Counted from the stretch's first letter, positions 5,214 to 27,914 are shown. The stretch is 64,000 nucleotides of DNA from Lentimicrobiaceae bacterium (GCA_033809755.1 JAPXLB010000004.1:3030-67029), one strand, 5' to 3'. A program made the numbers and translations. The notes: a model not told the origin generated them from the letters alone.

Positions 5214-6416
5214 TTAGTTTTTAGTAGCTTCAACTGTAAATGTTTCAGTAGCAGCATCAATAATAAGAACTAAAGTGTAATTTCCTTCTACATCAATTTT
5301 AATGTTACCACCGTTGTCTGAGAAGTCGCCTGCTGCAGGACCTGTCCATGTAAGGTCGTTGTATCCTAAGCTCATGCCTGCCCAATCATCACCTTGACGG
5401 AATTTGAATTCACCCGGAATAATTGGAATATTATATGTCCATGTGTAAACATTTCCATCAACTACAGGTAGGTGAGTTCCGAAGTTTTCGTCCCAAGCTG
5501 CTTGAGTTCCGTCAGCTTTGTTGTAGCAACTGCCAATAATACCTACTTGATAATTTGAGTAGTCAATCATGGGAATATCACCAGTTTTTGTTAAAGTAGC
5601 AATGTACTTTTCTCCAAGTTTCCATTCCAAGGTTGCGGTATATACACCTGAAACTTCATTGTTAATGTTAGGACCACCAGGAACTAAAGCATCAACAGCA
5701 CCACCAAAGTTGGTATTAACGCTAACTCCTTTTATGCCTTCACCAATTTCTAATTCCGTATCTAAGAATATTTTCCAACCATCTGAGTAACGATATTTAA
5801 ACTCAGATTTTGAAAGGTTAAGATCGGTAGCTTCAAAAACTATGTTGTTAAGGTCAAATGCTTTCATAGGCATTGGAGTACTTCCATTCCATCCGTTAGG
5901 AGTTGCAGCACCAATAACGCCCCATTCAACTTTACACATAACAACTTTGTTCAATTCAGTGTCAATAACAACATGGTATAACCCATCAGTGTTTACGGTA
6001 AATTTGTTGTCGTTTTCAACAAGATTACCTTTCCAAAGATCAACGCCTTTAGGTTCGTCGCCATGACGATCGGCATCGGGTACGATTGCAAAATCTGCAT
6101 CAGGTCCGTAGGTTTTTCTAACATCACCTTTAACTTCAACGATGTTAAAGCCTTCGTCTCCAGCTTTAACGGCAACGTATATTTCTAATAGAGTTGCTCT
6201 GTCTTCTTGGTTTACTTCGTTGCGAGTTACTTTAAGCATTCCTTTGGCGTCAAAATCTTCAAGAGCTGTTGCTCCACCTTTGATATAAACACCGTCGAGT
6301 ACTATGTTGTTGTCCTCATCTTCTTTGTCTTTTTTACATGATGTAAAAGCAAATGATAAGCCTAGTACGGCGATCATTAAATAACTAGCTAATTTTTTTA
6401 AATTTAAATGTCTCAT
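5214..6416 (-). CDS. SusE/SusF-like outer-membrane starch-binding lipoprotein
   Basis: 400-aa ORF with a lipoprotein signal (LGLSFAFTSCKKD). It lies immediately downstream of SusD in a starch PUL and is a Trp/Gly-rich beta-sandwich-like sequence. Confidence 0.6.
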   Translation of the reverse strand: MRHLNLKKLASYLMIAVLGLSFAFTSCKKDKEDEDNNIVLDGVYIKGGATALEDFDAKGMLKVTRNEVNQEDRATLLEIYVAVKAGDEGFNIVEVKGDVRKTYGPDADFAIVPDADRHGDEPKGVDLWKGNLVENDNKFTVNTDGLYHVVIDTELNKVVMCKVEWGVIGAATPNGWNGSTPMPMKAFDLNNIVFEATDLNLSKSEFKYRYSDGWKIFLDTELEIGEGIKGVSVNTNFGGAVDALVPGGPNINNEVSGVYTATLEWKLGEKYIATLTKTGDIPMIDYSNYQVGIIGSCYNKADGTQAAWDENFGTHLPVVDGNVYTWTYNIPIIPGEFKFRQGDDWAGMSLGYNDLTWTGPAAGDFSDNGGNIKIDVEGNYTLVLIIDAATETFTVEATKN

Positions 6417-6516
6417 TTTTTAAAATTTTAGTTAATAATAATTTTTTAATATTTAATTTATAAAGTCTTAATATTTTGCACAAAAATAATGCCAAACAAA
6501 AGGCTTTTATAAAGAT

Positions 6517-8004: not shown

Positions 8005-8027
8005 CTTAAATAGTTTTTAAATGTTGA

Positions 8028-11024: not shown

Positions 11025-11080
11025 AGATTTAATATTTAGTTAATAGTTGATTAATTAATTTTATTACGTGTTCATAATTG

Positions 11081-11088
11081 CAAATTTA
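11081..11088 (-). promoter_or_regulatory. Candidate Bacteroidota -7 promoter box (TAAATTTG on the minus strand) upstream of susC
   Basis: Plus-strand caaattta is the reverse complement of TAAATTTG and matches the TAnnTTTG consensus. It lies 57 nt upstream of the susC ATG. Confidence 0.35.
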
Positions 11089-11153
11089 TATATATTTTTC
11101 TAAAGTACGGTTCAATAATAAATTTAATTATTTTTTCCTGTTAAAAAAGTTAG

Positions 11154-13967
11154 TTACAAACAAATTATTTTTGTCGTTTTTTTGAAGTTTCCGACAGTTA
11201 ATTCCACGACATATAATCCTTTTTTTGGAGCTTGCCATTTAATGTTGTTGCTGCCCGACATCACTCCGTTGAATATATCACAAACGTAGCTGCCATCGAC
11301 AGAAAAGGCTCTTAAACTTACTTTGTTATTGTCTTTTACTTGTAATAAAATGTTTGCATCGCCGTGGGTTGGGTTAGGATAGATGCTAAAATTTAAAAGC
11401 GAACTTTCAGGGATTTTTTTTTCGTAAGGAAAATCGATTTTAATATCGGAGTATAGTTTATAATCGCCTGCGTTGAGCAATATACTTTGATTTACATTGT
11501 CGATTATTATCGTATCGCCCGAAAATAGCTCGAACCAAGTGCCTGTGCGCTGAAATACAACGTTGGCTGTTTGTTGAGTAACGTCGAAGTTGCCGACAAC
11601 GACAATATTGTTTGCGGTATCCGACAAGTGTATTGTTTTTATTTTTCCCAAAAGATTTACATCAAAATTATTGGTTTGGAAAACCGGATTATTTTTCTTC
11701 AAATTTATGAGCAAAGAGTTTATTTCAAACAGGTAACGTCTGTTTTTATCGTCGAAATAATCCCATCGTACAGGTTTTGGAGTTAGCCTATCGTTAGAAG
11801 TTCCCGACGGATAGTTTATAGAGAAATCGTATCCCAACTCACCGAATTGCCACAACATTTTAGGACCAGGAATAGTGTAGAAAAATGTAGATGCCAAAGC
11901 CGCACGTTTAAGAGCTGTAGCTGTATTTTTAATATCGTATCCTTGTTGCGAATTTCCCCATTTTTGGCAACGGTAAACCTGTCGTTCTTCGTCGTGGCTT
12001 TCCATGTAAGAAATAAGGTGTGGTTTTTGCCATCCCCTTTTTGTATAAACTCCCGATGATAAATCGCTGTTATTAACGTATCCCATCATGGCTTCGCCGT
12101 AGTTGTAGTTTATATTTCCCCACAAGAGCATTCCTTTGTCGGATAATATTCTCTCTTCCGTATTGTCGGCGAAATGTTCTAAAATGACGTAGGTATTTGG
12201 ATTGTACGCTTTGATAGTATCGCAATATTTTGAAAGGATATTTACACGTGATGGGTCATATTGAGCCATAGCAGCTGAATTGCCGAGAGTGTTTTTCTGT
12301 GTAAATCCTTTTGATAAATCGAAACGGAAGCCATCGAAATTAAACTCTTTTATGTAGTATTTCAAGGCATCGCTAACTAATTTGTTGGAGAAATCCGACT
12401 CGTGATTTATGTCGTAACCGACGTTAAAATCGTGTTTTGGTATTTGGTTATAAACAGGATTGTTTCCTGCGGGTCTGTTGTTTTTGGCATCCCAATACAG
12501 TTGAACGTAGGGAGCAGTACCAAACGAATGATTGAAAACTACATCTAAAATTACGGCTATGTCGTTATTGTGGCACGAATCAATGAGCTCTTTAAGTTTG
12601 TTTTGGTGACCGTAGTATTTATCAATTGCGAAATAGTAATTTGGATTGTAACCCCAACTGTCGTTGCCTTCAAACTCAGTAACAGGCATAAGTTCTATTG
12701 CATTTACTCCTAATTTATTCAGGTAAGGTATTTTATCAATAACCGATTGGAAAGACCTTTGTTCGGAAAAATCTCTGATTAGCAACTCATAAATGATCAA
12801 ATTTTGCACTTCGGGAGCTTTAAAACTGCAATTGCTCCAATTGTACACATCTGGTTTAATTTTTAATGAAGATGCAATACCGTTGGTTTTGCCGTGTGGA
12901 TATGGTTTTATGTTAGGATACGTAGAGTTGGGAATATACTTGTCGTTCCACGGGTCGGCGACTTTATTGCAGTACGGGTCGCCAATTCTTATATTTTCAT
13001 CGACTAAATATTGGTAATAATATTCCTTGTCATATTGGAGATTTGAGACCTGAAGCCAATAATATTTTCCATCGGGCGTTCGGTTCATTTTGTAGTCGGT
13101 ATCAGGCAGCCAATTATTAAAATCTCCTATGATGTACACATTGTTCTTATAAGGAGCAAACAACGAAAATACTACAGTAGTGGAATCAACTACGTTAACG
13201 CCATTTTTTATTCCGTCAGGCATAGCGGCAATATTAGTCGGTGTGCTAACAACGTAGAAAAGCGTATCGAAAAACGTTTCGTTAGCTTTAACACCTTTCG
13301 CAACTATTCTGTTTTGATTGTTGTTTTGCGGAACAATATTGCATTCTATTTCATTAAGAGTATTTGCTGCAACAAGTTCGCCGTTATGATAAATCAGTAT
13401 TGAATCGGTATTGATAGAAGCAGCTTTAATATTGATAATTTCGCCGTCAGGCACAAAAACAAAGTTGCCGTCGGGTTCTATAATTTTAATATTGATTGTA
13501 TTAGGATAGACATCATAAAAAATATCGCCATTGTTTTCTGTTTTACCTTCTAACCAAGCTCCCGAGACCATATTTGCACTTCTGAAAACAAAAGCCATTT
13601 GCAAAATCGTATCAGTCGTAGGTACAGAGTAATACGAGCGTATATCGGGTTGTATAGTTAATTTCCACAAGTTTTCACCTATTTTTATAAGTTTACAATC
13701 GGGAGTATTTGTGCCCCAATTTGCTTTAACGTATTTCCAATCGGAAGGGCTAACACTTTTGTTTGTAATTACTCCGGTATGAGCATAAACGTCTCCATCG
13801 TAGTTTTCAAGTCCTTTATTTCCGAGCGTAGCATCAAAAATCACTTCAACACTTTGTTGCTGAGTTGGTAATGGAGGATGAACATAAATTTGAGAATTTA
13901 GTAAGGAATTACAAAACAAAAAAAGCGAAAAAACTAAAACTCCCTTTTTTATTGAAACTATACGCAT
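11154..13967 (-). CDS. Secreted multidomain GH13 alpha-amylase/pullulanase-like enzyme with a T9SS C-terminal sorting domain
   Basis: 937-aa ORF with a signal peptide. GH13 regions are present: VILDVVFNHS, FDGFRFDLSKG, YVILEHF and YMESHDEE. The C-terminal ~80 aa (FSIYPNPTHGDANILLQV...YVVELTVGNFKKTTKIICL) is typical of a Por/T9SS secretion tail. Confidence 0.85.
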   Translation of the reverse strand: MRIVSIKKGVLVFSLFLFCNSLLNSQIYVHPPLPTQQQSVEVIFDATLGNKGLENYDGDVYAHTGVITNKSVSPSDWKYVKANWGTNTPDCKLIKIGENLWKLTIQPDIRSYYSVPTTDTILQMAFVFRSANMVSGAWLEGKTENNGDIFYDVYPNTINIKIIEPDGNFVFVPDGEIINIKAASINTDSILIYHNGELVAANTLNEIECNIVPQNNNQNRIVAKGVKANETFFDTLFYVVSTPTNIAAMPDGIKNGVNVVDSTTVVFSLFAPYKNNVYIIGDFNNWLPDTDYKMNRTPDGKYYWLQVSNLQYDKEYYYQYLVDENIRIGDPYCNKVADPWNDKYIPNSTYPNIKPYPHGKTNGIASSLKIKPDVYNWSNCSFKAPEVQNLIIYELLIRDFSEQRSFQSVIDKIPYLNKLGVNAIELMPVTEFEGNDSWGYNPNYYFAIDKYYGHQNKLKELIDSCHNNDIAVILDVVFNHSFGTAPYVQLYWDAKNNRPAGNNPVYNQIPKHDFNVGYDINHESDFSNKLVSDALKYYIKEFNFDGFRFDLSKGFTQKNTLGNSAAMAQYDPSRVNILSKYCDTIKAYNPNTYVILEHFADNTEERILSDKGMLLWGNINYNYGEAMMGYVNNSDLSSGVYTKRGWQKPHLISYMESHDEERQVYRCQKWGNSQQGYDIKNTATALKRAALASTFFYTIPGPKMLWQFGELGYDFSINYPSGTSNDRLTPKPVRWDYFDDKNRRYLFEINSLLINLKKNNPVFQTNNFDVNLLGKIKTIHLSDTANNIVVVGNFDVTQQTANVVFQRTGTWFELFSGDTIIIDNVNQSILLNAGDYKLYSDIKIDFPYEKKIPESSLLNFSIYPNPTHGDANILLQVKDNNKVSLRAFSVDGSYVCDIFNGVMSGSNNIKWQAPKKGLYVVELTVGNFKKTTKIICL

Positions 13968-17339: not shown

Positions 17340-18473
17340 CTAAATTTTTAGCAATAATTCTTCTAAATCTTTTTCAAGATTGTCATTATATCCATTTATT
17401 ATTGATATTATTTTATTATCGCTTGCATTATACAACACAAAAATAGGATAACCTTTGTCGCTTAGATTTTTAAAAAAGCCCCTCTTTGAAGGAATAACAA
17501 TAGGCATAGTTACATGCATTTTATCAGCAAATTTCTTTATTTTTTCTATATCATCATCAACTTCATTAATACTATAAAAAGCTATTCTATCTTTATATTT
17601 CTCATAAAGTTTTTCAACAATTGGAGCGGCTCGCATGCATGGCATGCAACCGGCATACCAAACATCGACAAATACATAACCTTGTTTAGGTAACATAACT
17701 TTGTTCTTGTTTATATCTGTAAAGGTAACATCTTTAAAATCAATAAACATATCTGAACTTATTTGAGTATCATCAGAAATAACAACAATTTCATCTTGTC
17801 TTTCTTCATAAATTATTTCGTATGGATAATAAAAGTTTGTATTTATTGGTTCAAAGCTGTAATTACTAAAGGTATAACCCTGAAATTGCATTCCAATGTT
17901 ATTTATATATTTAATTTGAAGATAATATCGGTCAATAACATTATTTATTGTGTCAAGATATGTAACATAATCAATATCTTCAATCATTTCCGGAAATGAT
18001 TGACTATTGTGTTTTAGTAGTACATTTCTGCCGTTACTTCCAATTTTTTTATAGGAATCTTGACCGTAATACTTTACAACTGTAGTATCAAAAAAAATAC
18101 TTCCTATTGGAAAAAAATCAATTATTGCTCCATAACCTGCAACATCATTTCTCCCACCAATATATCTAATTTGTTTTTCTTTATGAACAATTTGCCATAT
18201 TGAATCATTTTTAAGTATGTATTCTATATTATTACTAATATCATTTATCCTAAAGAAAGCCACCTTATTGCCATTTTTGACTAACTGAACTTTAGCACTT
18301 TTTGCGGTAGTGTCATTCTCAAATAAATTTAATTTCTTTACTGTAATTTCGTATGAAAGGAATTTTTTTTCAATAATATTTTTCGAATACTCGTAAATAT
18401 AATTCTTATTTTGTCCTATTACTAATATTTGTGTCGCAAACAAATATGCTAGAATAATTATTTTTTTTCCCAT
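17340..18473 (-). CDS. Secreted TlpA/redoxin-like thiol-disulfide oxidoreductase with a large N-terminal domain of unknown function
   Basis: 377-aa ORF with a signal peptide. The C-terminal thioredoxin fold carries a CxxC motif (VWYAGCMPCMRAAP). Confidence 0.65.
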   Translation of the reverse strand: MGKKIIILAYLFATQILVIGQNKNYIYEYSKNIIEKKFLSYEITVKKLNLFENDTTAKSAKVQLVKNGNKVAFFRINDISNNIEYILKNDSIWQIVHKEKQIRYIGGRNDVAGYGAIIDFFPIGSIFFDTTVVKYYGQDSYKKIGSNGRNVLLKHNSQSFPEMIEDIDYVTYLDTINNVIDRYYLQIKYINNIGMQFQGYTFSNYSFEPINTNFYYPYEIIYEERQDEIVVISDDTQISSDMFIDFKDVTFTDINKNKVMLPKQGYVFVDVWYAGCMPCMRAAPIVEKLYEKYKDRIAFYSINEVDDDIEKIKKFADKMHVTMPIVIPSKRGFFKNLSDKGYPIFVLYNASDNKIISIINGYNDNLEKDLEELLLKI

Positions 18474-18546: not shown

Positions 18547-18616
18547 AATAGAACAAAATTTTTTATTAAATAAATAATAAATTTCGATTTTTTCTTTGTA
18601 GATCAGAAAATTATAA

Positions 18617-18624
18617 TATTTTTG
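18617..18624 (+). promoter_or_regulatory. Candidate -7 promoter box TATTTTTG upstream of the lipid operon
   Basis: Matches TAnnTTTG. It lies 54 nt upstream of the ATG at 18678. Confidence 0.3.
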
Positions 18625-18677
18625 TAATATGTTTAATAGATTTATTAAATAACTCAATTAAATAGATTAATTAAATT

Positions 18678-19460
18678 ATGTATAATCGGAACATACATTG
18701 CCAAGAAAGGTATTACACTTCTTTCGACGTGGACTTTGTAGAAAACCGCGGTCAGAACTACGTGCTGCCGGAGGATTACGAGTGGATTCCCAAAAAGAAA
18801 TCTCAAATAAGGAAACAAAAATGGGCATATTTGCTTGCAAGGATTTTCGCCTACTTTTACTGTAAGTTCAGATTACACATTACAGTGGTCGGGAAGGAGA
18901 AAATAAGAGATGTAGGGAAGTCGGGTTTTTTCTTGTATGGAAATCACACCTTGGCGATGGGCGATGTATTCCTACCTGCTCACGTCTGCGGTAGTAAGAG
19001 AGTTTTCATCGTCGCAGATACAGCTAACCTTGGTATCCCCGTGGTAGGAAAATGGTTACCCTGCTTGGGTGCTTTACCAATACCCAGTGGGATTAAAGCA
19101 ATGGCAAAATTTTGTGCGGCTATTAATACTAGGATAGAGCAGGGCTGTTGTGTTACTTTATATCCTGAGGCTCACCTGTGGCCCTACTGTACCTTTATCC
19201 GTCCTATGAGCCGAACTGCATTTCGTTTTCCGGTCGAAAACCGAGTGCCCTCTTTCACGCTTTCAGTTACCTTTCAAAAAAGACGTTTCGGTAAGAAACC
19301 AAGAATCACGGCTTTTGTCGATGGTCCAATAGTTCCCGATGCGAACTTAACACTTAGAGAGCAATCAGCTGACCTGCAAAGCAAGGTAATGAAAACAATA
19401 AAAGACCGTTTAATTGCGAATACGTACACCTATGTTAACTATATAAAATCACCATTATGA
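18678..19460 (+). CDS. Divergent LPLAT/PlsC-superfamily acyltransferase
   Basis: 260-aa ORF. The motif-I-like GNHTLAMGD has atypical His-Asp spacing. LYPEAHLW is motif-III-like. The stop overlaps the next start (ATGA). Confidence 0.6.
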   Translation: MYNRNIHCQERYYTSFDVDFVENRGQNYVLPEDYEWIPKKKSQIRKQKWAYLLARIFAYFYCKFRLHITVVGKEKIRDVGKSGFFLYGNHTLAMGDVFLPAHVCGSKRVFIVADTANLGIPVVGKWLPCLGALPIPSGIKAMAKFCAAINTRIEQGCCVTLYPEAHLWPYCTFIRPMSRTAFRFPVENRVPSFTLSVTFQKRRFGKKPRITAFVDGPIVPDANLTLREQSADLQSKVMKTIKDRLIANTYTYVNYIKSPL

Positions 19461-20308
19461 ATGTATTATACTGTGGCGATAAGAATATTGAGGATGGTCT
19501 CATCATATCTGTGCTTTCTCTTATCGAGCATACGAAAGAGGAGCTTAACGTGTATGTGATGACAGCCCAATTTTCGTACAAGAATAAAGAGTACCTCAAG
19601 GTTGGCGAGGATACTATTTCAATTCTTAGGCAATACCTAAAAAAAGCTAACCAGTTGAGTGACATTAAACTATTAGACATAACGCAACTTTTCAAATCCG
19701 AATTACCTACTGCTAACATGAGAACGCGTTTCACACCTTGCTGCATGTTGCGTCTATTGGCTGATCGCGTAGAAGAATTGCCCGATAAGTTGCTTTACCT
19801 TGATAACGACGTAGTTTGTCGGAAGAGCATTGACGAATTTTACAATCAAGATATATCTGATGTTGAATTCGTCGGCATCCTCGACCATTACGGTAGTTGG
19901 TTATTTAGGAAGAAACCCTTTAAACGCAATTATGTCAATTCCGGCGTATTGCTTATGAACCTTTCAAAAATCCGAGAAACCGGATTATTTAAGAAAGCGT
20001 TGCAACGATGCAAGGAGAAAAGGATGTTTATGCCCGACCAAACTGCCATAAATCATTATGTTACAGAAAAGCGACTCGCAGAGAGAAAATTCAACGAGCA
20101 GCGAAGGATGCGTGCTGATACGGTAATGCGGCACTACACCACCACGTTCCGATTTTTCCCATGGTTCCATCATGTTTATGTTAAACCCTGGCAAATTGAT
20201 CGTATGCATAAGATCCTCAAAGATTACGAATTTGATCACCTGTTTCAGGAATACTCTAAGATTAAGATGTCAATAGTTGGATGTGAACAAAGTTATAATA
20301 TTAACTGA
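19457..20308 (+). CDS. Glycosyltransferase family 8 (retaining, LPS glucosyl/galactosyltransferase-like)
   Basis: 283-aa ORF with LLYLDNDVVC (DxD), VNSGVLLMNL and HHVYVKPW (the GT8 C-terminal H..KPW signature). Confidence 0.8.
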   Translation: MNVLYCGDKNIEDGLIISVLSLIEHTKEELNVYVMTAQFSYKNKEYLKVGEDTISILRQYLKKANQLSDIKLLDITQLFKSELPTANMRTRFTPCCMLRLLADRVEELPDKLLYLDNDVVCRKSIDEFYNQDISDVEFVGILDHYGSWLFRKKPFKRNYVNSGVLLMNLSKIRETGLFKKALQRCKEKRMFMPDQTAINHYVTEKRLAERKFNEQRRMRADTVMRHYTTTFRFFPWFHHVYVKPWQIDRMHKILKDYEFDHLFQEYSKIKMSIVGCEQSYNIN

Positions 20309-20394
20309 CGGCTTAACATATAAGTCTGAATAAAACTAAACAAACATGTATAAAAAAGACACTTTAGAATTAATAAATTAATAAATATAACCAA

Positions 20395-21354
20395 ATGGAA
20401 TCCAAAAATTTAATCCCCGTGTTTTTTGCTATTGATGACGCATACGCGCCCTTGCTTGGTGTGGCGTTAAAATCAATCATCATTAATGCTTCAAAGAAGA
20501 GAAACTACAAAGTCATTATTATTCAAGAGAATGTTAGTGATACTAACCAGCGTAAATTGTTATCACTTGCCAACGAGAATTTTGATATAGAAATCATATC
20601 AATGGGCAAATCGTTAGAAAATATTACCGACCGCAGCGAGAATAGACTTCGATGTGACTATTTCACGATGACCATCTTCTTTAGATTGTTCATTCCTGAA
20701 ATGTTTCCGGAATACGATAAGTGTCTTTACTTAGACAGCGACATCGTAGTTCCCGGTGATATATCCGAGCTGTATGACACTGACGTACAAAACTACCTTA
20801 TCGCTGCTTGCCCCGACTACTCATCCTCCGACGTACCTCCGCTCATCAATTGGATGGAAAACGCCGTCGGGGTTGATCGGCACAAATACGTTAATTCGGG
20901 TATCTTGGTAATGAACCTGAAGAAGTTGCGTGAAGTGAAACTTGAGGAACACTTCATGCATTTGCTCAACACCTACCACTTTGATTGCATTGCACCCGAC
21001 CAAGATTACTTGAACGCAATGTGCAAGGGGCAGATTTTCTTTCTTGATGAATCGTGGGACGTTATGCCTAACCCGCGAAGGAAGGAGCATCCTGCGCCAA
21101 AGCTTATCCATTACAACCTGTTTGAAAAACCATGGTGCTACGATAATATTCAATATGCCGATTATTTCTGGAAGTACGCCGAAATGAGCGATTTCTATGC
21201 ACAAGTAAAGGAGATAAAAGATAACTACAGTGAGGAACAAAAGCTTCGTGACGAGCAAAGTTTCAATCTGCTCATTCAAAAAGCTAAAACCGTCCCCGAC
21301 ACCGGAGTAACTTTCGTAAAAATGGGCAAAGAGAACGTAAAGATAAAGCTATGA
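20395..21354 (+). CDS. Glycosyltransferase family 8
   Basis: 319-aa ORF with IPVFFAIDDAYAP, CLYLDSDIVVPGD (DxD), VNSGILVMNLKKLRE and IHYNLFEKPW. Confidence 0.85.
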   Translation: MESKNLIPVFFAIDDAYAPLLGVALKSIIINASKKRNYKVIIIQENVSDTNQRKLLSLANENFDIEIISMGKSLENITDRSENRLRCDYFTMTIFFRLFIPEMFPEYDKCLYLDSDIVVPGDISELYDTDVQNYLIAACPDYSSSDVPPLINWMENAVGVDRHKYVNSGILVMNLKKLREVKLEEHFMHLLNTYHFDCIAPDQDYLNAMCKGQIFFLDESWDVMPNPRRKEHPAPKLIHYNLFEKPWCYDNIQYADYFWKYAEMSDFYAQVKEIKDNYSEEQKLRDEQSFNLLIQKAKTVPDTGVTFVKMGKENVKIKL

Positions 21355-22205
21355 ACGATATAGATGGAAATCCGGTAATTTGCAATATCCGCAATGCAGT
21401 TGAAAAGGGATTGTTTCACGTCAAAGTGGAAGTGGGAGAGCCTGAATTTAATGCTGATGAGAAACGTGAAATTATCGAGAAATACTCGAAAGAACGAGAA
21501 ACAATGTCTTATTGGGTTAAAAATCGCATTGTTTGCATAGCTCAAAATGTGGTGTCTTTGTTGAGAAACATCAATACTAAGTATATTGGCATTGAAAACA
21601 CAAAAACGCTGGGAGACACGGGCGCAATTGTTACTAGTAATCATTTTAACCCGTTGGAAAACACTGCCATCTTCCGTGTGATAAAAAAAATAGGACGTCG
21701 AAAAAAAATGTATGCCATCAGTCAGGTATCGAACTTCAAAATGACGGGAATCATCGGCTTCTTATTGCGTTACGCTAATGTAATTCCAATCAGCAAGGAT
21801 TCTACGGAGTACATGTGCGAGAAATTTCCTGACCATGTTCAAATGGTGCTAAAAAAGGGCAATTTCATCCTCATGTATCCGGAGCAAGAAATGTGGCGCA
21901 ATTATCGTAAGCCTCGTCCATTGAAGTTGGGAGCTTATTTTTATGCTGCTAAATTTAATGTGCAGATTTTGCCTTGTTTCGTGGAGATACGTGATGAGCG
22001 TACTTTGTTCGGTATTTGGAATACGCGATATTTCGTTCATATACTGCCTGTCATAACCCCCAATCCGGAGTTAGATATAAAAACTGATGCTAAGCGCATG
22101 TTGCTCATCGATTACGAGCAGAAAAAAAATGCTTACGAGCGAGCATACGGACGACCCTTGGATTACACTTTTGACGCTTCGGATATTGCAGGAGGCATAA
22201 AATGA
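21351..22205 (+). CDS. Divergent LPLAT/PlsC-superfamily acyltransferase
   Basis: 284-aa ORF with TSNHFNPLEN (HX4E variant of motif I) and MYPEQEMW (motif III-like). Both neighbouring gene junctions are ATGA overlaps. Confidence 0.6.
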   Translation: MNDIDGNPVICNIRNAVEKGLFHVKVEVGEPEFNADEKREIIEKYSKERETMSYWVKNRIVCIAQNVVSLLRNINTKYIGIENTKTLGDTGAIVTSNHFNPLENTAIFRVIKKIGRRKKMYAISQVSNFKMTGIIGFLLRYANVIPISKDSTEYMCEKFPDHVQMVLKKGNFILMYPEQEMWRNYRKPRPLKLGAYFYAAKFNVQILPCFVEIRDERTLFGIWNTRYFVHILPVITPNPELDIKTDAKRMLLIDYEQKKNAYERAYGRPLDYTFDASDIAGGIK

Positions 22206-25200
22206 TACATGTAGGTATAGACATCGGGTCAACCACGGTTAAAATTGCCGCGATATCACCAACGGATAACAAATTGTTATACAAGAAATACGTCAGGCAT
22301 CATTCTCTGCAGGTTCGTACGTTAATAGAATTGTTAGACAACTTTCACGATGAATTCCGGTCGGAAACATGTAAAGTTGCAATTTGCGGTTCAGGTGGGA
22401 AACCCATCGCTGAGAAATTACGCGTTCCGTTCATTCAAGAGGTAGTTGCCAATGCCAACGCTGTCTGTTACTTGTACCCTGAAACCCGAACTGCGATTGA
22501 GCTTGGGGGACAGGATGCCAAGGTCATCTTTTTTTACCGAGACGAACACGACGGTCAACCAAAGGTATCAGATATGCGTATGAATGGTAATTGTGCCGGC
22601 GGCACGGGTGCCTTTATTGATGAAATAGCCCAATTACTTGATGTTCAAACTTCGGAATTTGATGCGCTCGCAGCCCAAGCTTCCAGAGTTTATGATATTT
22701 CAGGTCGTTGTGGCGTGTTTGCCAAGACAGATATCCAGCCCTTATTGATTCAAGGGGCAGCCCATGCCGACATTGCCCTTTCTACGTTTCATGCGATAGC
22801 GAAGCAAACAATCGGGGGACTTTCACAAGGTCTTGAGATTACTCCTCCTATTATTTTCGAAGGTGGACCCTTAACTTTCAACAAACAGTTGGTGAGAGTC
22901 TTCGTGGAACGGCTCCAACTTAAGGGAAATGATATCATCGTTCCGAAATACCCTGAAATTATCGTTGCCTATGGTGCTGCTCTTTCCATTGATAGACTCC
23001 AGAATGATAAGACCGATAATAGCTTCACGATAGATGAACTTCTAAAAAAATTAAGAAACATAGAGAGCGAAATCAGAATATCAACTAATGAGCCTCCTTT
23101 CTTTGATACTGAAAAAGATTACGCCGAATTCGCCGAAAGGCATGACAAAGAGTTGCGTGAAAATGCGATAGCAACTCCTCAAAACGGTATATTAGACGTT
23201 TACCTTGGCATAGATTCGGGTAGCACTACCTCTAAGTTTGTGCTCATAAATGAAGAAGAACAAGTGATTGAACGCTTTTACGCACCCAATTTAGGCAAAC
23301 CTTTGGACGTATTGAAGCGGGGACTGACGGAAGTTTACGGCAAGTACAAAAAGCAAGGCATTGAGTTGAACGTTAAGGGGTTTGGCAGTACGGGCTACGG
23401 TGAATTGATGACGGCAAACGCGTTAGGGGCAGATTATCACATCGTTGAGACAGTCGCACATGCTCAAGCTGCCTTACATTATTACCCCGACACCACATTC
23501 CTTTTAGATATTGGAGGACAGGACATGAAAGCCATATGGATTGATAACGGAGTGATAACCAATATTATGCTAAATGAAGCCTGCTCTTCGGGTTGCGGTT
23601 CTTTCCTTGAGAATTTCGCTGTTACGATGAAGATTCCGGTGGAAGAGATTGGTGCAGCTGCATTTCGCTCAACATCCCCGGCTAAGTTGGGAAGCCGTTG
23701 TACGGTTTTTATGACCAGTAGCATCGTAACCGAGCAACGCAACGGTAAGTCGCCGGACGATATCATGGCTGGTCTATGCCGTTCCATCATAGAGAATGTC
23801 TTCACTAAGGTGGTTAGGATTAACAATACCGATAGCTTGGGTAATAAAATTGTAGTACAGGGAGGTACTTTTCGAAATCGTGCGGTGCTGCGTGCCTTTG
23901 AAGAATACCTTGGCAAGGAGGTGCGACTTGCGCCATACCCGGGAGAGATGGGTGCAGTCGGTGTCGCCTTGCTCACGAAACAGCATATTGAGAAGTTAGG
24001 GTGCGTAGCTGAAAATAGTAGCAATTTCATAGGTTTCGACGAATTGAAAAGTTTTGACTATGTAACTGAGTCGGGTGTGCCATGTCCGCATTGTGCTAAT
24101 CATTGCTTACGAACCATAATCCGTTTCCCGAAAGGAAAAGCTTGGGTAACCGGAAACAAGTGCGAACGTGGGGCTGAACTTACCGACGGGAAAAAAGACA
24201 AAAAATTGAAGGTAAAAAAAACCGAAAGAAGTGCGACAGACCTTTTCTCAAAAAGAGCGAGGATGTTATTTGAGCCATACCCTTGTGAAAATGTGTCGAA
24301 CCAAAAAAGAGAAATTGTGGGCTTGCCCCGCACGTTGGAATTCTGGAACAGTATGCCGTTTTGGAGTACTTTCTTTAAAGCATTGGGATTCAAAACGTTG
24401 TTCTCAAACCCTAGCGATCAAGAAATCTACGAGAAAGGTCTTCAGTTTGTGGCATCCGATACTATATGTTTTCCGGCTAAGATGGTACACGGGCATATCG
24501 AAAACCTTGCCGAAAAAGGTGTCGACCGCGTATTCCTGCCTTATGTGATGCATTTGCCACCTGAGGGCGTGGACAAGTTAAGTCCCTACGTCTGTTCCAT
24601 CATCATGGGATATTCCATGGTAGTCAGAAATACGCAAGATCCGGCAAAAAGGCATAGTATTCACTTAGATACACCTATATTTCACTGGTTTTCAGAAAAA
24701 GACAGAATTCGACAAATTTGCGATTTCGCCGTTGAAAGTCTAAATGTTAGCCGAAAGGAGGCAAAACAAGCTTACCTATCAGCCCTAAACTCTATGACAA
24801 CATTTAAAACTATGCTCCGCTCCGAAGCTGAACGCCTTATACAGGAAGCTGAACGTGCGAACAAAACGGTTATTGTTTTAGCCGGTCGACCTTATCACAG
24901 TGACCCGTTTATTTCGCACAATGTTACCAAGTTCTTTATTGAAAAAGGACTCTCCGTTATCCCTGTAGATGCTTTACCCGGCTTAGAAGAAGTGGATTTA
25001 CGCCATACTAACATTGAGATTACTAACAACTTCCACACGAGGATGCTAGCGGGGGCTGTTATAGCAGCACAAAACCCGGCGCTCGAATACGTACAATTGG
25101 TCAGTTTTGGATGTGGGCACGATGCTGTACTCTCCGACGAGATTGTTCGCATAATGAAATGTTGCGGTAACAAATCTCCATTAATCCTAAAAATTGATGA

Positions 25201-26551
25201 AAGCGAGGCAAGCGGTTCTTTACGCATTCGTATCCAATCGTTCATAGAAACCATTACCAATCATAAGAATAGTACGATTCCTGCGAGCACTCTACCAGCA
25301 CCAAATCCTGTGAAATTTTATAAAAAAGACAAACAAAAACGTACGGTATTGATTCCCAACATTTCTGCAGAAATGATGATATTGATGGATGCTATCTTAG
25401 AGAAGAAGGGCTTTAGAGTACAGAGGGTTCCTGTGGGTGGTAAGCGACAAATCAGTTTAGGTAAGAAGTACGTACACAACGACATTTGTTTCCCGTGCCA
25501 AATGGTTATAGGTGAGTTGATAGCTGCGTTGCAGGACGGCAACTATCGTAGCGATGAGGTGGCAGTGGGTATGGTGAAGTTTCAATGCGACTGTCGGCTA
25601 TCGCACTATGCCGGCTTACTGCGTAAAGGACTCGATGCGGCGGGCTTCAACGATGTGCCCATTATTACTACCGATGTGAATGACACTAAAGAGAATAATC
25701 CCGGCATAACGTTGTTGAGTCTGCCGGCTATTTTTGAAGTCGCAAACAGCTTTATGATGTTGGATATTATAAATGAGCTTTGTCGGAAAATCCGTCCGTA
25801 CGAACTTCGTGCCGGCGATACAGACCAATGGCTGCAAAAAAGCATCCGAAGTATTGCTAAAGCTATTAATGATGGTATTTTAGCCGCCAGAGAAACTTTT
25901 AAGCAATGTATCAACGAGCTAAAACATATTAAATACAATAGAGAGAGACCTAAACCGAGAGTTTTCGTAACGGGTGAGTTGTTAGTAACGTACCATCCGG
26001 GGTCTAATTTTAACATAGAACGTTATCTTGAAAAAACGGGCATGGAAACCATTTTCCCACGCTTTACCGACCAGCTAAGGAAAGATTTTTTAGCACAAGT
26101 GTGGCAAAAACGAGATTTTAAGGCAGACGTGCCACGTTATCCGTACTTGGTTACGTGGCTGTTCAACAACACGCAACGCTCTCTTGAAAATATTGCTGTT
26201 GCTCATCCATTGTTTCAAAAGACCCTTAGTCCGGCAAAGTTATACGAAGATGTAAAAGAAATCATCCCGGGAACGTTAAGTTGTGGCGAAGGTTGGCTAA
26301 TGGCGGCAGATATAATGCATTATGCTAAACAAGGCGTAACCTCGCACATTATTTTGCAACCCTTTGGCTGTCTGCCGAACCACGTGTGCGGTAGAGGCGT
26401 GATAAAAAAGTTAAAGGAGTGTTGTCCCGACATTTCTATTTTACCGCTTGACCTCGACCCTGACACAAGCTACGCAAATATAGAGAACCGACTACAAATG
26501 TTAATTATGAACATGCAATATAGCACAAAAAATGCTTACCTTTGCAAATAG
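22202..26551 (+). CDS. Fusion of two BcrAD/BadFG (HgdC-like) activase ATPase domains with DUF2229 and HgdB/2-hydroxyacyl-CoA-dehydratase-like modules; BCR/HAD-type radical enzyme resembling anaerobic plasmalogen synthase PlsA/PlsR
   Basis: 1449-aa ORF. Domain 1 has VGIDIGSTTVKIA, NGNCAGGTGAFIDE and SGRCGVFAKTD. Domain 2 has LGIDSGSTTSKFV, NEACSSGCGSFLE and GSRCTVFMTSS. A Cys motif CPHCANHC follows, then a DUF2229-like part (GLPRTLEFWNSMPFWSTFFKALGF...DTICFPAKMVHGH) and a second HAD-like part (VHNDICFPCQMVIGE...FQCDCRLSHY...QPFGCLPNHV). Confidence 0.85.
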   Translation: MIHVGIDIGSTTVKIAAISPTDNKLLYKKYVRHHSLQVRTLIELLDNFHDEFRSETCKVAICGSGGKPIAEKLRVPFIQEVVANANAVCYLYPETRTAIELGGQDAKVIFFYRDEHDGQPKVSDMRMNGNCAGGTGAFIDEIAQLLDVQTSEFDALAAQASRVYDISGRCGVFAKTDIQPLLIQGAAHADIALSTFHAIAKQTIGGLSQGLEITPPIIFEGGPLTFNKQLVRVFVERLQLKGNDIIVPKYPEIIVAYGAALSIDRLQNDKTDNSFTIDELLKKLRNIESEIRISTNEPPFFDTEKDYAEFAERHDKELRENAIATPQNGILDVYLGIDSGSTTSKFVLINEEEQVIERFYAPNLGKPLDVLKRGLTEVYGKYKKQGIELNVKGFGSTGYGELMTANALGADYHIVETVAHAQAALHYYPDTTFLLDIGGQDMKAIWIDNGVITNIMLNEACSSGCGSFLENFAVTMKIPVEEIGAAAFRSTSPAKLGSRCTVFMTSSIVTEQRNGKSPDDIMAGLCRSIIENVFTKVVRINNTDSLGNKIVVQGGTFRNRAVLRAFEEYLGKEVRLAPYPGEMGAVGVALLTKQHIEKLGCVAENSSNFIGFDELKSFDYVTESGVPCPHCANHCLRTIIRFPKGKAWVTGNKCERGAELTDGKKDKKLKVKKTERSATDLFSKRARMLFEPYPCENVSNQKREIVGLPRTLEFWNSMPFWSTFFKALGFKTLFSNPSDQEIYEKGLQFVASDTICFPAKMVHGHIENLAEKGVDRVFLPYVMHLPPEGVDKLSPYVCSIIMGYSMVVRNTQDPAKRHSIHLDTPIFHWFSEKDRIRQICDFAVESLNVSRKEAKQAYLSALNSMTTFKTMLRSEAERLIQEAERANKTVIVLAGRPYHSDPFISHNVTKFFIEKGLSVIPVDALPGLEEVDLRHTNIEITNNFHTRMLAGAVIAAQNPALEYVQLVSFGCGHDAVLSDEIVRIMKCCGNKSPLILKIDESEASGSLRIRIQSFIETITNHKNSTIPASTLPAPNPVKFYKKDKQKRTVLIPNISAEMMILMDAILEKKGFRVQRVPVGGKRQISLGKKYVHNDICFPCQMVIGELIAALQDGNYRSDEVAVGMVKFQCDCRLSHYAGLLRKGLDAAGFNDVPIITTDVNDTKENNPGITLLSLPAIFEVANSFMMLDIINELCRKIRPYELRAGDTDQWLQKSIRSIAKAINDGILAARETFKQCINELKHIKYNRERPKPRVFVTGELLVTYHPGSNFNIERYLEKTGMETIFPRFTDQLRKDFLAQVWQKRDFKADVPRYPYLVTWLFNNTQRSLENIAVAHPLFQKTLSPAKLYEDVKEIIPGTLSCGEGWLMAADIMHYAKQGVTSHIILQPFGCLPNHVCGRGVIKKLKECCPDISILPLDLDPDTSYANIENRLQMLIMNMQYSTKNAYLCK
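26537..26544 (+). promoter_or_regulatory. Candidate internal -7 box TACCTTTG just upstream of tetR
   Basis: Matches TAnnTTTG. It lies 28 nt upstream of the ATG at 26572, inside the last codons of the 1449-aa gene. Confidence 0.3.
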
Positions 26552-26571
26552 ATATACAAGCACGAGATATA

Positions 26572-27195
26572 ATGAAGAATAATTCACCAAATACTGAATT
26601 TCAGATACTTGCATCAGCAGAAAAACTTTTCCTTGAAAAAGGATTTAGAGGCGCATCTACCACCGAGATTGCTAAGGATGCAGGTTGTAATCAAGCCCTA
26701 GTACATTATTATTTTCGCACTAAGGAAAACCTGTTTCAAAAAGTCTTCTTGAGGAAGTTCGAATACCTTTTGGAACAAATTAAGATACCTTTGGAAAAGG
26801 AGACAGACTTTTTCTCAAAATTGGAAAATATGGTTGAAGTGTACTTTAACTTTATGATAAAGAACCCTACGATTCCTTACTTCATATTCAATGAACTGAA
26901 TAGCAACCCAAAACGAAGGAGACAACTTCGAGATTGGCTCATAAAGAGACCTAATCTGGAAGAAGTTTTTCTAAAGTTTGCCGCTTCGGTAGAAGATGCT
27001 AAATCACAAGGACTAATTCGCGACATCAGTCCTTCAAATCTACTCATGAATATAGGCTCACTCGTAATTTCCACATTCCTTATGGCTCCTATTATCACTG
27101 ATTTACAAGATTTGGATCAATCCCACACTGTTGACTTTATTGTCTATCGAAAAAAAGAAGTGCTGACACAACTATTCCAAGGTTTACGAGTATAG
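26572..27195 (+). CDS. TetR/AcrR family transcriptional regulator
   Basis: The helix-turn-helix region reads ILASAEKLFLEKGFRGASTTEIAKDAGCNQALVHYYFRTKENLF. The track ORF begins at a TTG (26542), and I prefer the ATG at 26572. Confidence 0.85.
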   Translation: MKNNSPNTEFQILASAEKLFLEKGFRGASTTEIAKDAGCNQALVHYYFRTKENLFQKVFLRKFEYLLEQIKIPLEKETDFFSKLENMVEVYFNFMIKNPTIPYFIFNELNSNPKRRRQLRDWLIKRPNLEEVFLKFAASVEDAKSQGLIRDISPSNLLMNIGSLVISTFLMAPIITDLQDLDQSHTVDFIVYRKKEVLTQLFQGLRV

Positions 27196-27236
27196 ACGAT
27201 GACCGTTGCGTAACAAAAATAATTTGAAATATCGGG

Positions 27237-27290
27237 TCGAACCCGCACCCCGTAACACACCGTTCACCCATCACTCACCACTCATCACCC
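27237..27290. repeat. Heptamer-type intergenic repeat element (ACCCGCA-like plus CACCCATCACTCA-like units)
   Basis: tcgaacccgcaccccgtaac...caccgttcacccatcactcaccactcatcaccc. It lies between convergent tetR and NUDIX and overlaps the NUDIX stop codon. Confidence 0.6.
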
Positions 27291-27914
27291 ATTTTCAATA
27301 ACATCAATAAGTTCCCCCAAAATCATCGCAGTAGCACCCCAAATAAAGTGTTCGCCAATTTCAAACCCCGGCACTTGCGACATTCCCCTTATGGTTTTTA
27401 GTTGTTTGCAAATAATTTTTTTGCTGTTTATTTCGTTTAATAAATCGACTGTAATTACTTCTTGAACTTCTTTCGGGTCGGGTTTAAAGTTGGGTTTGCT
27501 TTTTGAAAAACTTACGAAAGGGTGGGTGATGAAATTGCTAGGAAGTACAAACAACGGAGTTAAAGCTCCTATGTATTCATATTCGTTGCTGCTTACGTTA
27601 ATTTCTTCAAGAGTTTCTCTTTTGGCGGTATCGTATTTGCTGAGGTCGCAGCTTTCACATCTTCCGCCGGGCAATCCTATCTGTCCGGAATGAGCACCAT
27701 TGTAAACATTTCGCAAAATTACTGGAAAATGAATACTGCCATTTTCAGGATAAAGCATTATCATTACGGCACTTGGTCTGGGATTTTTGAGAGCTTTTCC
27801 AGACAATAATTCTTTTTCCAAAGATTTTGGAGCCAATTTTATTTGAGCACTCATACCCGGCAAGGGCTGACTAAGTTTCTTTTTTAATTTTTGTATAATT
27901 TCCAAATTCATCAA
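27285..27914 (-). CDS. NUDIX hydrolase (CoA pyrophosphatase-like)
   Basis: 209-aa ORF with the Nudix box GLPGGRCESCDLSKYDTAKRETLEEINV. Confidence 0.8.
   Translation of the reverse strand: MMNLEIIQKLKKKLSQPLPGMSAQIKLAPKSLEKELLSGKALKNPRPSAVMIMLYPENGSIHFPVILRNVYNGAHSGQIGLPGGRCESCDLSKYDTAKRETLEEINVSSNEYEYIGALTPLFVLPSNFITHPFVSFSKSKPNFKPDPKEVQEVITVDLLNEINSKKIICKQLKTIRGMSQVPGFEIGEHFIWGATAMILGELIDVIENG

Follow-up and report, generated by a model that had tools for sequence, protein, structure and literature searches.

A fused PlsA-type ester reductase gene joined to a conserved acyltransferase–glycosyltransferase module on a putatively acquired island of a Bacteroidales genome

Within the 64,000-nucleotide window (the whole stretch of Lentimicrobiaceae DNA that was analysed), a gene for a predicted single-chain glycerol-ester reductase of the PlsA type and an adjacent TetR-family regulator lie directly behind four smaller genes—an acyltransferase, two family 8 glycosyltransferases, and a second acyltransferase (LPLAT1, GT8a, GT8b, and LPLAT2)—and it is this upstream four-gene module that looks new at the locus; no paper describing it was found. 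Our best explanation of the whole, held tentatively, is an acquired island in which a PlsA–TetR unit and a glycolipid module jointly make ether-linked glycosyl lipids. An ORF scan of the window recovered all six tightly packed plus-strand genes that the initial annotation had placed at 18678-27195 (Table 1), and the three start/stop overlaps that it had described (19457-19460, 21351-21354, and 22202-22205) all read ATGA. That the block is more than a chance arrangement is confirmed by DNA identity of 76% exactly over the island and by orthologous gene sets in many other genomes.

Table 1. Features of the six-gene island and its leader (positions counted from the first letter of the window)
Feature	Position	Strand	Description
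LPLAT1	18678-19460	+	260 aa; divergent acyltransferase of PlsC/PatA fold; NH-x5-D and YPE motifs
GT8a	19457-20308	+	283 aa; family 8 retaining glycosyltransferase
GT8b	20395-21354	+	319 aa; family 8 retaining glycosyltransferase
LPLAT2	21351-22205	+	284 aa; acyltransferase of PlsC/PatA fold; NHFNPLE and YPE motifs
Predicted PlsA+PlsR-type (or Ger-type) glycerol-ester reductase, single chain	22202-26551	+	1449 aa; predicted to be ATP-dependent
TetR-family regulator	26542-27195	+	217 aa; likely true start ATG 26572
Shared island	18629-27197	+	six genes and a leader of ~46 nt; from blastn against Petrimonas-type loci
Candidate Bacteroidales-type promoter	18593-18624	+	TTTG at 18593-18596; TATTTTTG at 18617-18624, fits TAnnTTTG
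Candidate TetR operator	18632-18649	.	18-bp palindrome TTTAATAGATTTATTAAA; conserved in alignment with L008 and L031

The limits of the island emerge from comparison with four Petrimonas-type loci (L005, L008, L030, and L031). In blastn searches with the whole window, ~76% DNA identity was recovered solely over 18629/18632-27197, and the island flanks had no DNA in common with these loci; tblastx against the same loci found no shared coding sequence outside the island across the 64 kb. The borders are sharp and the flanks non-syntenic, which speaks for acquisition; against it, neither mobile-element genes nor flanking repeats were seen at the borders. GC3 is 0.43-0.51 in the five enzyme genes versus 0.19-0.36 in the flanking genes. 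The host itself bears the signs of a member of the Bacteroidales—an amylase with a T9SS tail, a Sus-type PUL, and housekeeping genes in clusters named Bacteroidales or Lentimicrobiaceae—and Firmicutes supply the nearest named relatives both of PlsA and of every module protein, with a neighbor-joining tree placing the Bacteroidota PlsA pair inside the Clostridia radiation. It is possible, and in our view the best explanation, that the island represents Clostridia-like genes acquired laterally by a Bacteroidales (Lentimicrobiaceae-like) genome, in a direction of transfer that we infer. Upstream of the shared segment, the TTTG and TAnnTTTG elements resemble the Bacteroides -33/-7 consensus; this candidate has low information content because the region is AT-rich, and purely by inference it may serve as the promoter of the island operon.

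The 1449-aa ORF had been described as a giant fusion of two HgdC-like activases with DUF2229 and HgdB-like modules. Its activase and DUF2229 portions are well supported: BcrAD_BadFG (PF01869) matches at 260 bits and TIGR00241 at 308 bits, each over two stretches, and DUF2229 (PF09989) follows the activases at residues 706-924 (234 bits). The HgdB-like portion is faint, the last 520 residues yielding an HGD-D match at E 0.045 and a second, sub-threshold DUF2229 match (27 bits versus 29.4; E 4e-6). Among solved activators, HgdC and HadI align with residues 334-593, and residues 4-261 likewise have solved-activator matches. The ORF is colinear with split loci L090 and L097, residues 4-1022 corresponding to the PlsA gene and residues 1031-1439 to the PlsR gene, the latter segment at 42-46% identity to the second gene of each locus. 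It carries a CxxCxxxC...C cluster motif, and 14 cysteines (C131, C170, C461, C500, C628, C631, C635, C654, C756, C798, C971, C1096, C1131, and C1390) are invariant among 17 homologues of 34-100% identity; by analogy with HgdC, these may bind the activase-bridging and reductase Fe–S clusters. More than 8000 homologues were found, the nearest named ones all Clostridia at 57-63% identity, a range shared by more than 100 Clostridia proteins of like architecture. In size it agrees with validated PlsA encoded by a single gene, which spans 4248 bp in E. faecalis and 4311 bp in L. cremoris (PMC12838417). By architecture, length, and cysteines, the ORF is thus predicted to be an ester reductase of the PlsA/PlsR–Ger type, the validated members having been compared by description only; the likeness to PlsA/PlsR that the initial annotation proposed is borne out by these features and by the colinearity with the split two-gene forms. 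Because the domain content of PlsA and Ger is alike, the ORF is assignable to either; as PlsA it would be predicted to yield a vinyl ether, and as Ger an alkyl ether.

The PlsA/PlsR pair of Clostridium perfringens (CPE1194/CPE1195) was reportedly identified as the plasmalogen synthase by Jackson and colleagues in 2021. Like this pair and the single-gene PlsA of Enterococcus faecalis (EF1327), Lactococcus cremoris, and Bifidobacterium longum, the window ORF has two BcrAD_BadFG regions, DUF2229, and a putative PlsR-equivalent C-terminus, here in one chain of ~1450 aa; it further shares with known PlsA systems the conserved cysteines (Fe–S ligands by analogy), an adjacent TetR gene (EF1326/EF1327), and an anaerobic host. 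It likewise resembles Ger of Thermotoga maritima (Tmari_0479) and Desulfatibacillum alkenivorans (SHJ90043), which belongs to the same family, with a BBD core and small C-terminal D and H segments (PMC13159169). Ger, a modified PlsA, reduces the sn-1 ester anaerobically to give saturated alkyl ethers, whereas PlsA gives vinyl ethers (PMC13159169). Unlike known PlsA systems, the window gene comes fifth in its operon, preceded by genes for two acyltransferases and two GT8 enzymes, and lies on a putatively acquired Bacteroidales island, read here from sequence alone; unlike Ger, for which no such partners are reported, it has glycosyltransferase and acyltransferase neighbors. Considered by themselves, the large ORF and the TetR gene are of kinds described before, which tempers the initial annotation of an undescribed operon: PlsA fused into a single gene has been reported (PMC12838417), TetR adjoins pls in E. 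faecalis (PMC9702350), and PlsA homologues have been reported in ~15% of Bacteroidota (PMC10191378).

The module LPLAT1-GT8a-GT8b-LPLAT2 is conserved in more than 20 Firmicutes species, independently of PlsA. GT8b and LPLAT2 are kept in 22 of 22 GT8b loci and all four genes in 21, the exception (L016) showing just GT8b and LPLAT2; two gene orders occur among these loci, and a three-gene variant without GT8b is found at L111 and L112. Fusions are documented for LPLAT1-GT8a (P0428, P0441, and P0442), for GT8a-GT8b (L032, P0417, P0421, P0422, P0433, P0435, and P0438), and for GT8b-LPLAT2 (L019, L023, L025, and L026). Co-retention, together with fusion of every adjacent pair, argues that the four small genes do belong together as a conserved functional unit. 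Directly upstream of the module, 8 of the 22 loci carry a stand-alone LPG_synthase_TM gene, similar to the MprF flippase.

Both GT8 proteins are assigned to glycosyltransferase family 8 by score and by motif, as had been proposed: Pfam Glyco_transf_8 (PF01501, cut-off 24.3) matches GT8a at 64 bits and GT8b at 165 bits, and the DxD, NSG, and KPW motifs are all present (DND116, NSG161, and KPW243 in GT8a; DSD114, NSG167, and KPW245 in GT8b). The GT8a family is small, with 118 representatives at E<=1e-30 among 1.84 billion, and the solved structures nearest to GT8b are WbbM, 3tzt, LgtC, and GlyE. WaaI/J/O/R, LgtC, and WbbM, the best matches among named or solved proteins, resemble the window proteins in their GT8 fold, in their DxD motif, and in being retaining enzymes, and PRK15171 (LPS 3-alpha-galactosyltransferase) is the sole NCBIfam match of both. 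The default reading of Bacteroidales GT8 genes would place these, with the acyltransferases, among the ordinary genes by which a Gram-negative host modifies its LPS core or lipid A. We consider this very improbable: unlike the LPS/LOS enzymes, the window proteins score far below the PRK15171 equivalog cut-off (46.2 and 53.2 bits versus 461), their orthologues occur almost exclusively in LPS-free Firmicutes, the acyltransferases match PF01553 (LPLAT1 just under its cut-off) and gave no Pfam match to a lipid A acyltransferase family, and the genes sit on a foreign island beside PlsA.

The two acyltransferases had been annotated as sharing an NHxxxxD/E and a YPE motif, which is accurate for LPLAT2 and holds only in part for LPLAT1. 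LPLAT2 reaches 44.8 bits against Pfam Acyltransferase (PF01553, cut-off 23), contains N97-H98-FNPL-E103 and YPE176, and is, by this score and catalytic motif, assigned as an LPLAT/PlsC-like acyltransferase; its AlphaFold2 model (pLDDT 86.2) has PatA 5f2z, GPAT 1iuq, and PlsC 5kym as top Foldseek matches, and 1640 homologues were found. LPLAT1 keeps the fold and the YPE motif but differs in spacing, with H90-x5-D96 rather than H-x4-D, and at 22.6 bits falls just below the PF01553 cut-off. Its AlphaFold2 model (pLDDT 90.9) clearly matches the acyltransferase fold, with PlsC 5kym, LpxM 5kn7, and PatA as top Foldseek matches (E ~1e-5, TM ~0.5), and N89, H90, D96, P163, and E164 are invariant across its family (284 homologues, the named ones nearly all Firmicutes). 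Against the PlsC equivalog TIGR00530 (cut-off 102.95 bits), LPLAT2 scores 30.4 bits and LPLAT1 has no match.

These assignments bear on whether the module makes a glycerolipid at all. The acceptors of characterised GT8 enzymes are LPS cores, O-antigen, proteins, or small polyols, the nearest solved relatives here being WbbM, LgtC, and GlyE, and we know of no characterised case of a GT8 enzyme making a glycoglycerolipid. PatA, the best structural match of LPLAT2, acylates mannose rather than glycerol; the PlsC and Aas equivalog scores are far under their cut-offs; and no transmembrane helix is predicted in any of the four small module proteins. The product could accordingly be imagined as an acylated sugar or oligosaccharide, or as a decorated teichoic-acid-type polymer or protein, with the PlsA homologue reducing an ester there or acting elsewhere. 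That reading seems improbable given a lipid-flippase-like gene as a common neighbor, a fold of LPLAT1 nearest to PlsC, FadR and FasR among the sub-threshold matches of the TetR protein, and sn-1 glycerol ester reduction as the sole validated chemistry of the PlsA/Ger family (PMC13159169; PMC9702350). The PlsC/PatA/GPAT folds, the MprF-like neighbor, and the FadR/FasR matches point instead to a membrane lipid as the product of the module.

Direct joining of PlsA to the module is the minority of cases, and most loci of either kind are unlinked. The module occurs without PlsA in 21 of 22 species-level loci, within the fetched flanks, at least 12 of these having at least 4.5 kb on both sides; PlsA occurs without the module in 77 of 80 metagenomic PlsA loci; and among the nearest Firmicutes PlsA relatives the module is joined in three of eight and absent in five. 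In the complete genome of Aminipila luticellarii, MarR and an ABC pair come after the module, and PlsA is absent nearby. In [Lactobacillus] rogosae, PlsA (P0044 cluster) and the module (L013) coexist on separate contigs or in separate regions, with no linkage between them. The six genes are therefore not co-conserved in general, which qualifies their coupling as one pathway in the initial annotation; the unity of the four small genes and the joining of PlsA to them in several independent orders uphold it. Such counts favor the alternative that two independent units were co-transferred or co-regulated, PlsA and TetR acting on bulk PE/PG as in C. perfringens and the module making an unrelated envelope glycolipid or glycoconjugate, with adjacency reflecting shared membrane-remodelling regulation or hitch-hiking. 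In E. coli, validated PlsA needs no partner to convert bulk PE and PG to plasmalogens (PMC12838417; PMC13159169), so a dedicated substrate pathway is unnecessary, and the TetR–PlsA pair stands without the module in L103, L104, L106, L109, and E. faecalis. The locus would then be an ordinary fused PlsA and TetR beside an uncharacterised glycolipid-like operon.

We nevertheless judge independence of the two units somewhat unlikely, in view of how they are joined where they do meet. With AT for acyltransferase, the order AT1-GT8a-GT8b-AT2-PlsA(-TetR) is found in the window, L005, L008, L030, and L031, and in L006 with MarR replacing TetR; AT1-GT8a-AT2-PlsA in L111 and L112; and PlsA-[GT8a-GT8b fusion]-AT2-AT1-TetR in L032, where one tight operon holds, besides the full PlsA, the module, and TetR, an additional PlsA-like pair that is split. 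In each of these arrangements, at least three in number, the two units run in one direction and either overlap or lie less than ~100 nt apart, and random adjacency of two loci in a ~3 Mb genome would be expected in well under 1% of cases per lineage. Ten further PlsA clusters probably share a contig with a module acyltransferase match, the longest contig of each being equal in length to that of such a match. As the initial annotation had surmised of characterised pathways, no paper was found describing PlsA coupled with such an acyltransferase and glycosyltransferase set.

If the two units do act jointly, as in our preferred explanation, the fusion would be an oxygen-sensitive, ATP-driven [4Fe-4S] enzyme that takes a completed glycerolipid and reduces its sn-1 acyl ester to an alk-1-enyl, possibly alkyl, ether. 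The four module enzymes, peripheral to the membrane, would work as one assembly line: the two retaining GT8 enzymes would use nucleotide sugars to append two hexoses in alpha linkage (the sugars, acceptor, and order of steps being presumed), and the two PlsC/PatA-fold enzymes would attach two acyl chains. The module would yield a glycerolipid bearing two glycosyl groups and possibly additional acylation, which in many Firmicutes the adjacent MprF-like flippase may transfer across the membrane. In the fused operon, the reductase would most likely work on this product or its precursor pool, and the end products would be ether-linked (plasmalogen-type) glycosyl-diradylglycerols. In the module, no phosphatase or other evident step from the acyltransferases to a diacylglycerol acceptor was seen. 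The initial annotation had posited a TetR-controlled pathway building and glycosylating an ether glycerolipid; the enzyme types, the module as a unit, and the several joins are consistent with it, and the lack of general linkage is not. A bolder version, which we find doubtful, is that the module is a self-contained, unrecognised pathway to diglycosyl (acyl)glycerolipids, in which GT8 enzymes serve as the glycolipid synthases and the LPLATs represent two new subfamilies, and that it became fused with PlsA in some anaerobes as a mobile ether-glycolipid operon and moved from Clostridia to at least two Bacteroidales lineages, a diderm host thereby gaining a Gram-positive-type lipid.

Plasmalogen-type glycolipids have been chemically known in Clostridia for decades; to our knowledge, the enzymes of glycosyl-diradylglycerols in most anaerobes and the substrate choice of PlsA are not known. 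Clostridia contain glycosyl-diradylglycerols of which a large part is plasmalogen, and for which the genes are mostly not known (PMC9702350; PMC11898633). In Clostridioides difficile, hexSDF, with UgtA/UgtB, offers a parallel as a dedicated small operon for a hexose-diradylglycerol lipid (PMC10128005; PMC11898633), whose products take diacyl and plasmalogen forms (PMC10128005; PMC11898633). It encodes a glycosyltransferase, a deacetylase, and an MprF-like flippase, and the flippase-only HexF parallels the gene beside 8 of the 22 module loci (PMC10128005). Unlike the window module, HexS is annotated as a monogalactosyldiacylglycerol synthase, with GT8 unmentioned in either paper (PMC10128005; PMC11898633), and the hex operon has two-component regulation and neither acyltransferases nor a pls gene. 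The early phosphatidylinositol-mannoside pathway of mycobacteria (PimA, PimB', and PatA) is similar by analogy only, in that two successive glycosyl transfers to a glycerolipid are accompanied by sugar acylation by a peripheral-membrane acyltransferase; PatA has no sequence relationship with LPLAT2 past the fold, the acceptor is phosphatidylinositol, and no ether-forming enzyme takes part. Phosphatidylinositol-mannoside glycosyltransferases belong to GT4, not GT8. The module, tied by fusions and repeatedly joined to PlsA, is a testable candidate for the missing glycosyl-diradylglycerol chemistry; if this proved true, it would give bacterial GT8 enzymes a first role as lipid synthases. The island, for its part, suggests that ether-lipid capacity can travel between phyla as a compact six-gene package, which bears on the reading of ether-lipid biomarkers and on the range of lipids made by Bacteroidales of guts and digesters.

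The sixth gene encodes a TetR-family protein, as annotated initially (TetR_N, PF00440, 50 bits at residues 22-67), whose best NCBIfam matches, all below cut-off, are RefZ and then Bacillus FadR and FasR. Two starts are available, TTG 26542 overlapping the reductase ORF and ATG 26572 (MKNNSP...), 21 nt past its stop, the latter likely being the true one. TetR also adjoins PlsA in L032, L103, L104, L106, and L109, as it does in E. faecalis (EF1326/EF1327; PMC9702350). Its operator and ligand are presumptive elements of the proposed mechanism; the regulator probably binds the palindrome ahead of the first gene, the arms of which are invariant in the alignment with L008 and L031. In L008 the element reads TTTAATAG-CT-CTATTAAA, a perfect 8+8 palindrome despite a genome of 50% GC.

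The six forward-strand ORFs of the block lie exactly where the initial annotation had placed them, and the three ATGA start/stop overlaps it described are real. Pfam bears out most of the domain readings: Glyco_transf_8 for ORF2 (GT8a) and ORF3 (GT8b), Acyltransferase for ORF4 (LPLAT2), two BcrAD_BadFG domains plus DUF2229 for the large ORF5, and TetR_N for ORF6. The HgdB/DUF2229-like modules also proposed for ORF5 hold as far as DUF2229 is concerned; a second DUF2229 match is sub-threshold, and similarity to HGD-D is faint. ORF1 (LPLAT1) falls 0.4 bit under the Pfam Acyltransferase cut-off, but its assignment as an acyltransferase agrees with its AlphaFold2 model (pLDDT 90.9), which matches PlsC, LpxM and PatA, and with residues N89, H90, D96, P163 and E164, which are invariant across the LPLAT1 family. 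Its motif is NH-x5-D, rather than the NHxxxxD/E first given. No sequence-level PDB relatives were found for LPLAT1 or LPLAT2, and the PDB matches of ORF5 cover its activase domains only.

Homologues of the 1449-aa ORF5 number more than 8000. Its architecture is common to all of the best 120, which are mostly ~1410-1610 aa long, and the named relatives among them are all Clostridia (57-63% identity), except for the Petrimonas-type cluster P0002. At two metagenomic loci (L090, L097) the gene is split in two, with window residues 4-1022 aligning with the first part and 1031-1439 with the second; plsA and plsR are likewise two separate genes in C. perfringens (PMC12838417). Judging from this colinearity, ORF5 is probably a fusion of PlsA and PlsR, the anaerobic plasmalogen (vinyl ether) synthase. 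Validated single-gene PlsAs are of the same size (4248 bp in E. faecalis, 4311 bp in L. cremoris; PMC12838417). Fourteen cysteines are invariant in homologues down to 34% identity. Each activase holds two (C131 and C170 in the first, C461 and C500 in the second), the motif C628-x2-C-x3-C...C654 accounts for four, three fall within or shortly after the main DUF2229 region (residues 706-924), and the PlsR-equivalent part has the other three. Ger, which belongs to the same family and has the same core architecture, yields alkyl rather than vinyl ethers (PMC13159169); family and architecture therefore do not fix which of the two ORF5 would produce.

Features located in the window and at other genomic or metagenomic loci (L-numbers)
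Sequence	Positions	Strand	Feature	Details
Window	106-13967	-	Starch utilisation locus	1013-aa fusion of HAD-type hydrolase and GH65 phosphorylase; alpha-amylase; SusE/F-like, SusD, SusC; 937-aa amylase with T9SS C-terminal sorting domain
Window	17340-18473	-	Thioredoxin/redoxin-like gene beside island	GC 26.5%, GC3 0.185, vs GC of 37.6% for the whole window; deviates opposite way to island
Window	18629-27197	+	Six-gene island	LPLAT1, GT8a, GT8b, LPLAT2, PlsA-type, TetR
Window	18632-18649		18-bp palindrome in leader	Candidate TetR operator
Window	26542	+	TetR start candidate	TTG
Window	26572	+	TetR start candidate	ATG; may be used
Window	27285-27914	-	NUDIX protein just outside island	Opposite strand; not common to Petrimonas loci; best NCBIfam match CoA pyrophosphatase, 57 bits (cut-off 134)
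Window	40420-42159		Phosphoglucomutase gene	Adjoins glycogen synthase fusion
Window	42201-46433	-	1410-aa glycogen synthase fusion	Glycogen_syn / GT5-GT1, DUF3417, alpha-glucan phosphorylase part
L006	12313-16342		MarR and ABC_membrane/ABC_tran half-transporter pair	Firmicutes
L007	17961-21908		MarR and ABC_membrane/ABC_tran half-transporter pair	Firmicutes
L116	13607-17763		MarR and ABC_membrane/ABC_tran half-transporter pair	Firmicutes
L032	1668-5851		Second PlsA-like system	592-aa double activase and 802-aa DUF2229 protein; 41% and 30% identity to window ORF
L117	10001-12155		MarR-LPLAT1-GT8a	Anaerocolumna sp. MB42-C2 (CP133190); then only small ORFs of 73 and 109 aa

On comparison across genomes, the four small genes, LPLAT1-GT8a-GT8b-LPLAT2 (hereafter the module), are a conserved unit of their own. 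A GT8b alignment scanned against one genome per GTDB species recovered 22 loci, one in Petrimonas sp., with the complete six-gene block at 78-87% identity to the window, and 21 in Firmicutes (Lachnospira / [Lactobacillus] rogosae, Ruminococcus, Acutalibacteraceae, Oscillospiraceae, many Clostridia MAGs and Schleiferilactobacillus harbinensis). GT8b and LPLAT2 are kept in every locus and all four genes in 21, only GT8b and LPLAT2 being detected at L016. Writing AT1 and AT2 for the two acyltransferases, the order is either AT1-GT8a-GT8b-AT2 or GT8a-GT8b-AT2-AT1, and fusions are known for every adjacent pair: GT8b-LPLAT2 (L019, L023, L025, L026), GT8a-GT8b (L032 and six database clusters) and LPLAT1-GT8a (three database clusters). 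The family of GT8a itself is small: of 1.84 billion representatives, 118 match at E<=1e-30. A role for the GT8 genes in LPS modification is very hard to credit: the LPS-core reading was rejected on equivalog scores and on this Firmicutes distribution. The module of Anaerocolumna sp. MB42-C2 looks truncated or decayed.

No transmembrane helix is predicted in any of the four module proteins, and the folds of LPLAT1 and LPLAT2 resemble the peripheral-membrane enzymes PlsC, PatA and GPAT. Directly upstream of the module, 8 of the 22 loci carry a stand-alone MprF-flippase-like gene (LPG_synthase_TM), paralleling HexF of the C. difficile glycolipid operon (PMC10128005). A module product other than a glycerolipid seems improbable.

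PlsA is joined to the module tightly and co-directionally, and no fewer than three arrangements occur: that of the window (AT1-GT8a-GT8b-AT2-PlsA-TetR, with MarR replacing TetR in L006); AT1-GT8a-AT2-PlsA, a three-gene module variant (L111, L112); and, in L032, PlsA first, then a GT8a-GT8b fusion, AT2, AT1 and TetR. Of the eight nearest Firmicutes relatives with readable gene context, three show such linkage, and for ten further PlsA clusters the longest contig is equal in size to that of a module acyltransferase match. Co-conservation of all six genes, set beforehand as a test of the proposed operon, was found only in part and is not general: most module loci are without PlsA, which is absent from the fetched flanks of all 21 Firmicutes loci, and 77 of 80 metagenomic PlsA loci are without the module. 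Both units are present, unlinked, in [Lactobacillus] rogosae. Between this frequent separation and the repeated tight joining, it is possible, if rather unlikely, that the units are independent and co-located for regulation. In a neighbour-joining PlsA tree without support values, which has the form of a star-like radiation, PlsAs with and without the module are intermingled; a single monophyletic clade of module-linked PlsAs therefore fails to explain the linkage, and was rejected.

The L032 contig (metagenomic, 56% GC) also carries a second, differently split PlsA-like system directly upstream of its full-length PlsA, and would therefore hold two ether-lipid-synthase paralogues in one operon with the module and TetR. 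In Firmicutes, a MarR gene with an ABC half-transporter pair recurs near PlsA and/or the module, and in the complete genome of Aminipila luticellarii it directly follows the module; the pair may serve to export or flip lipids, or its recurrence may be a coincidence.

We tentatively favor, with a little less than even confidence, reading the block as a lipid island. The module would build a diglycosyl, possibly extra-acylated, glycerolipid; the PlsA+PlsR enzyme would convert its sn-1 ester to an ether; and TetR, which has fatty-acid regulators among its sub-threshold matches, would control the whole. Such a product would agree with the glycosyl-diradylglycerols, rich in plasmalogen, that are known from Clostridia (PMC9702350).

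As to the host, UvrB, PFK and MutL of the window fall in 90%-identity clusters named for Bacteroidales or Lentimicrobiaceae MAGs, and the upstream 14 kb of the window form a starch utilisation locus of Sus type, one of whose amylases has a T9SS tail. By blastn against the Petrimonas-type contigs (L005, L008, L030, L031; ~50% GC), similarity is confined to the island, at 76% identity, with no shared sequence elsewhere in the 64 kb. GC3 is 0.43-0.51 in the five enzyme genes versus 0.19-0.36 in neighboring genes, and a leader of ~46 nt is conserved between the window and the Petrimonas-type loci, its palindrome being perfect in L008. The Firmicutes affinity of the five enzymes, the sharp boundaries, the GC3 and the conserved leader together indicate that the island was laterally acquired and has spread between Bacteroidales lineages; we infer the direction of transfer from the nearest relatives, which point to Clostridia as the source. 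The search of the island ends turned up neither an integrase, a transposase nor a tRNA, and no convincing flanking direct or inverted repeats. Scanning for sigma-70 promoters and terminators gave counts equal to shuffled expectation and is therefore not informative in a Bacteroidales host.

The PlsA-type ORF5 is an enzyme of known type: fused PlsA (PMC12838417), TetR adjoining pls (PMC9702350), and PlsA homologues in ~15% of Bacteroidota (PMC10191378) have all been described. A literature search for the module, or for the module coupled to plsA, found no paper; apparently undescribed so far are the conserved LPLAT/GT8 module with the gene fusions that link it, the repeated joining of this module to PlsA, and a compact island common to different phyla.

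More distant PlsA loci (L100-L109) show 34-35% identity to the window ORF. At L103, L104, L106 and L109, TetR often directly adjoins PlsA, and the surroundings, with RND pump genes, DUF4906 and a Bacteroides-type integrase, look like those of Gram-negatives or Bacteroidota. These are hints that L100-L109 may represent the PlsA type native to Bacteroidota, as opposed to the Clostridia-like PlsA of the window. Lastly, an LPLAT1 homologue (P0209) occurs in Loigolactobacillus backii, a congener of L. coryniformis, the species whose plasmalogens have an aldehyde pattern fitting neither of two LAB types (PMC12838417); speculatively, module-linked lipids may lie behind this odd pattern.
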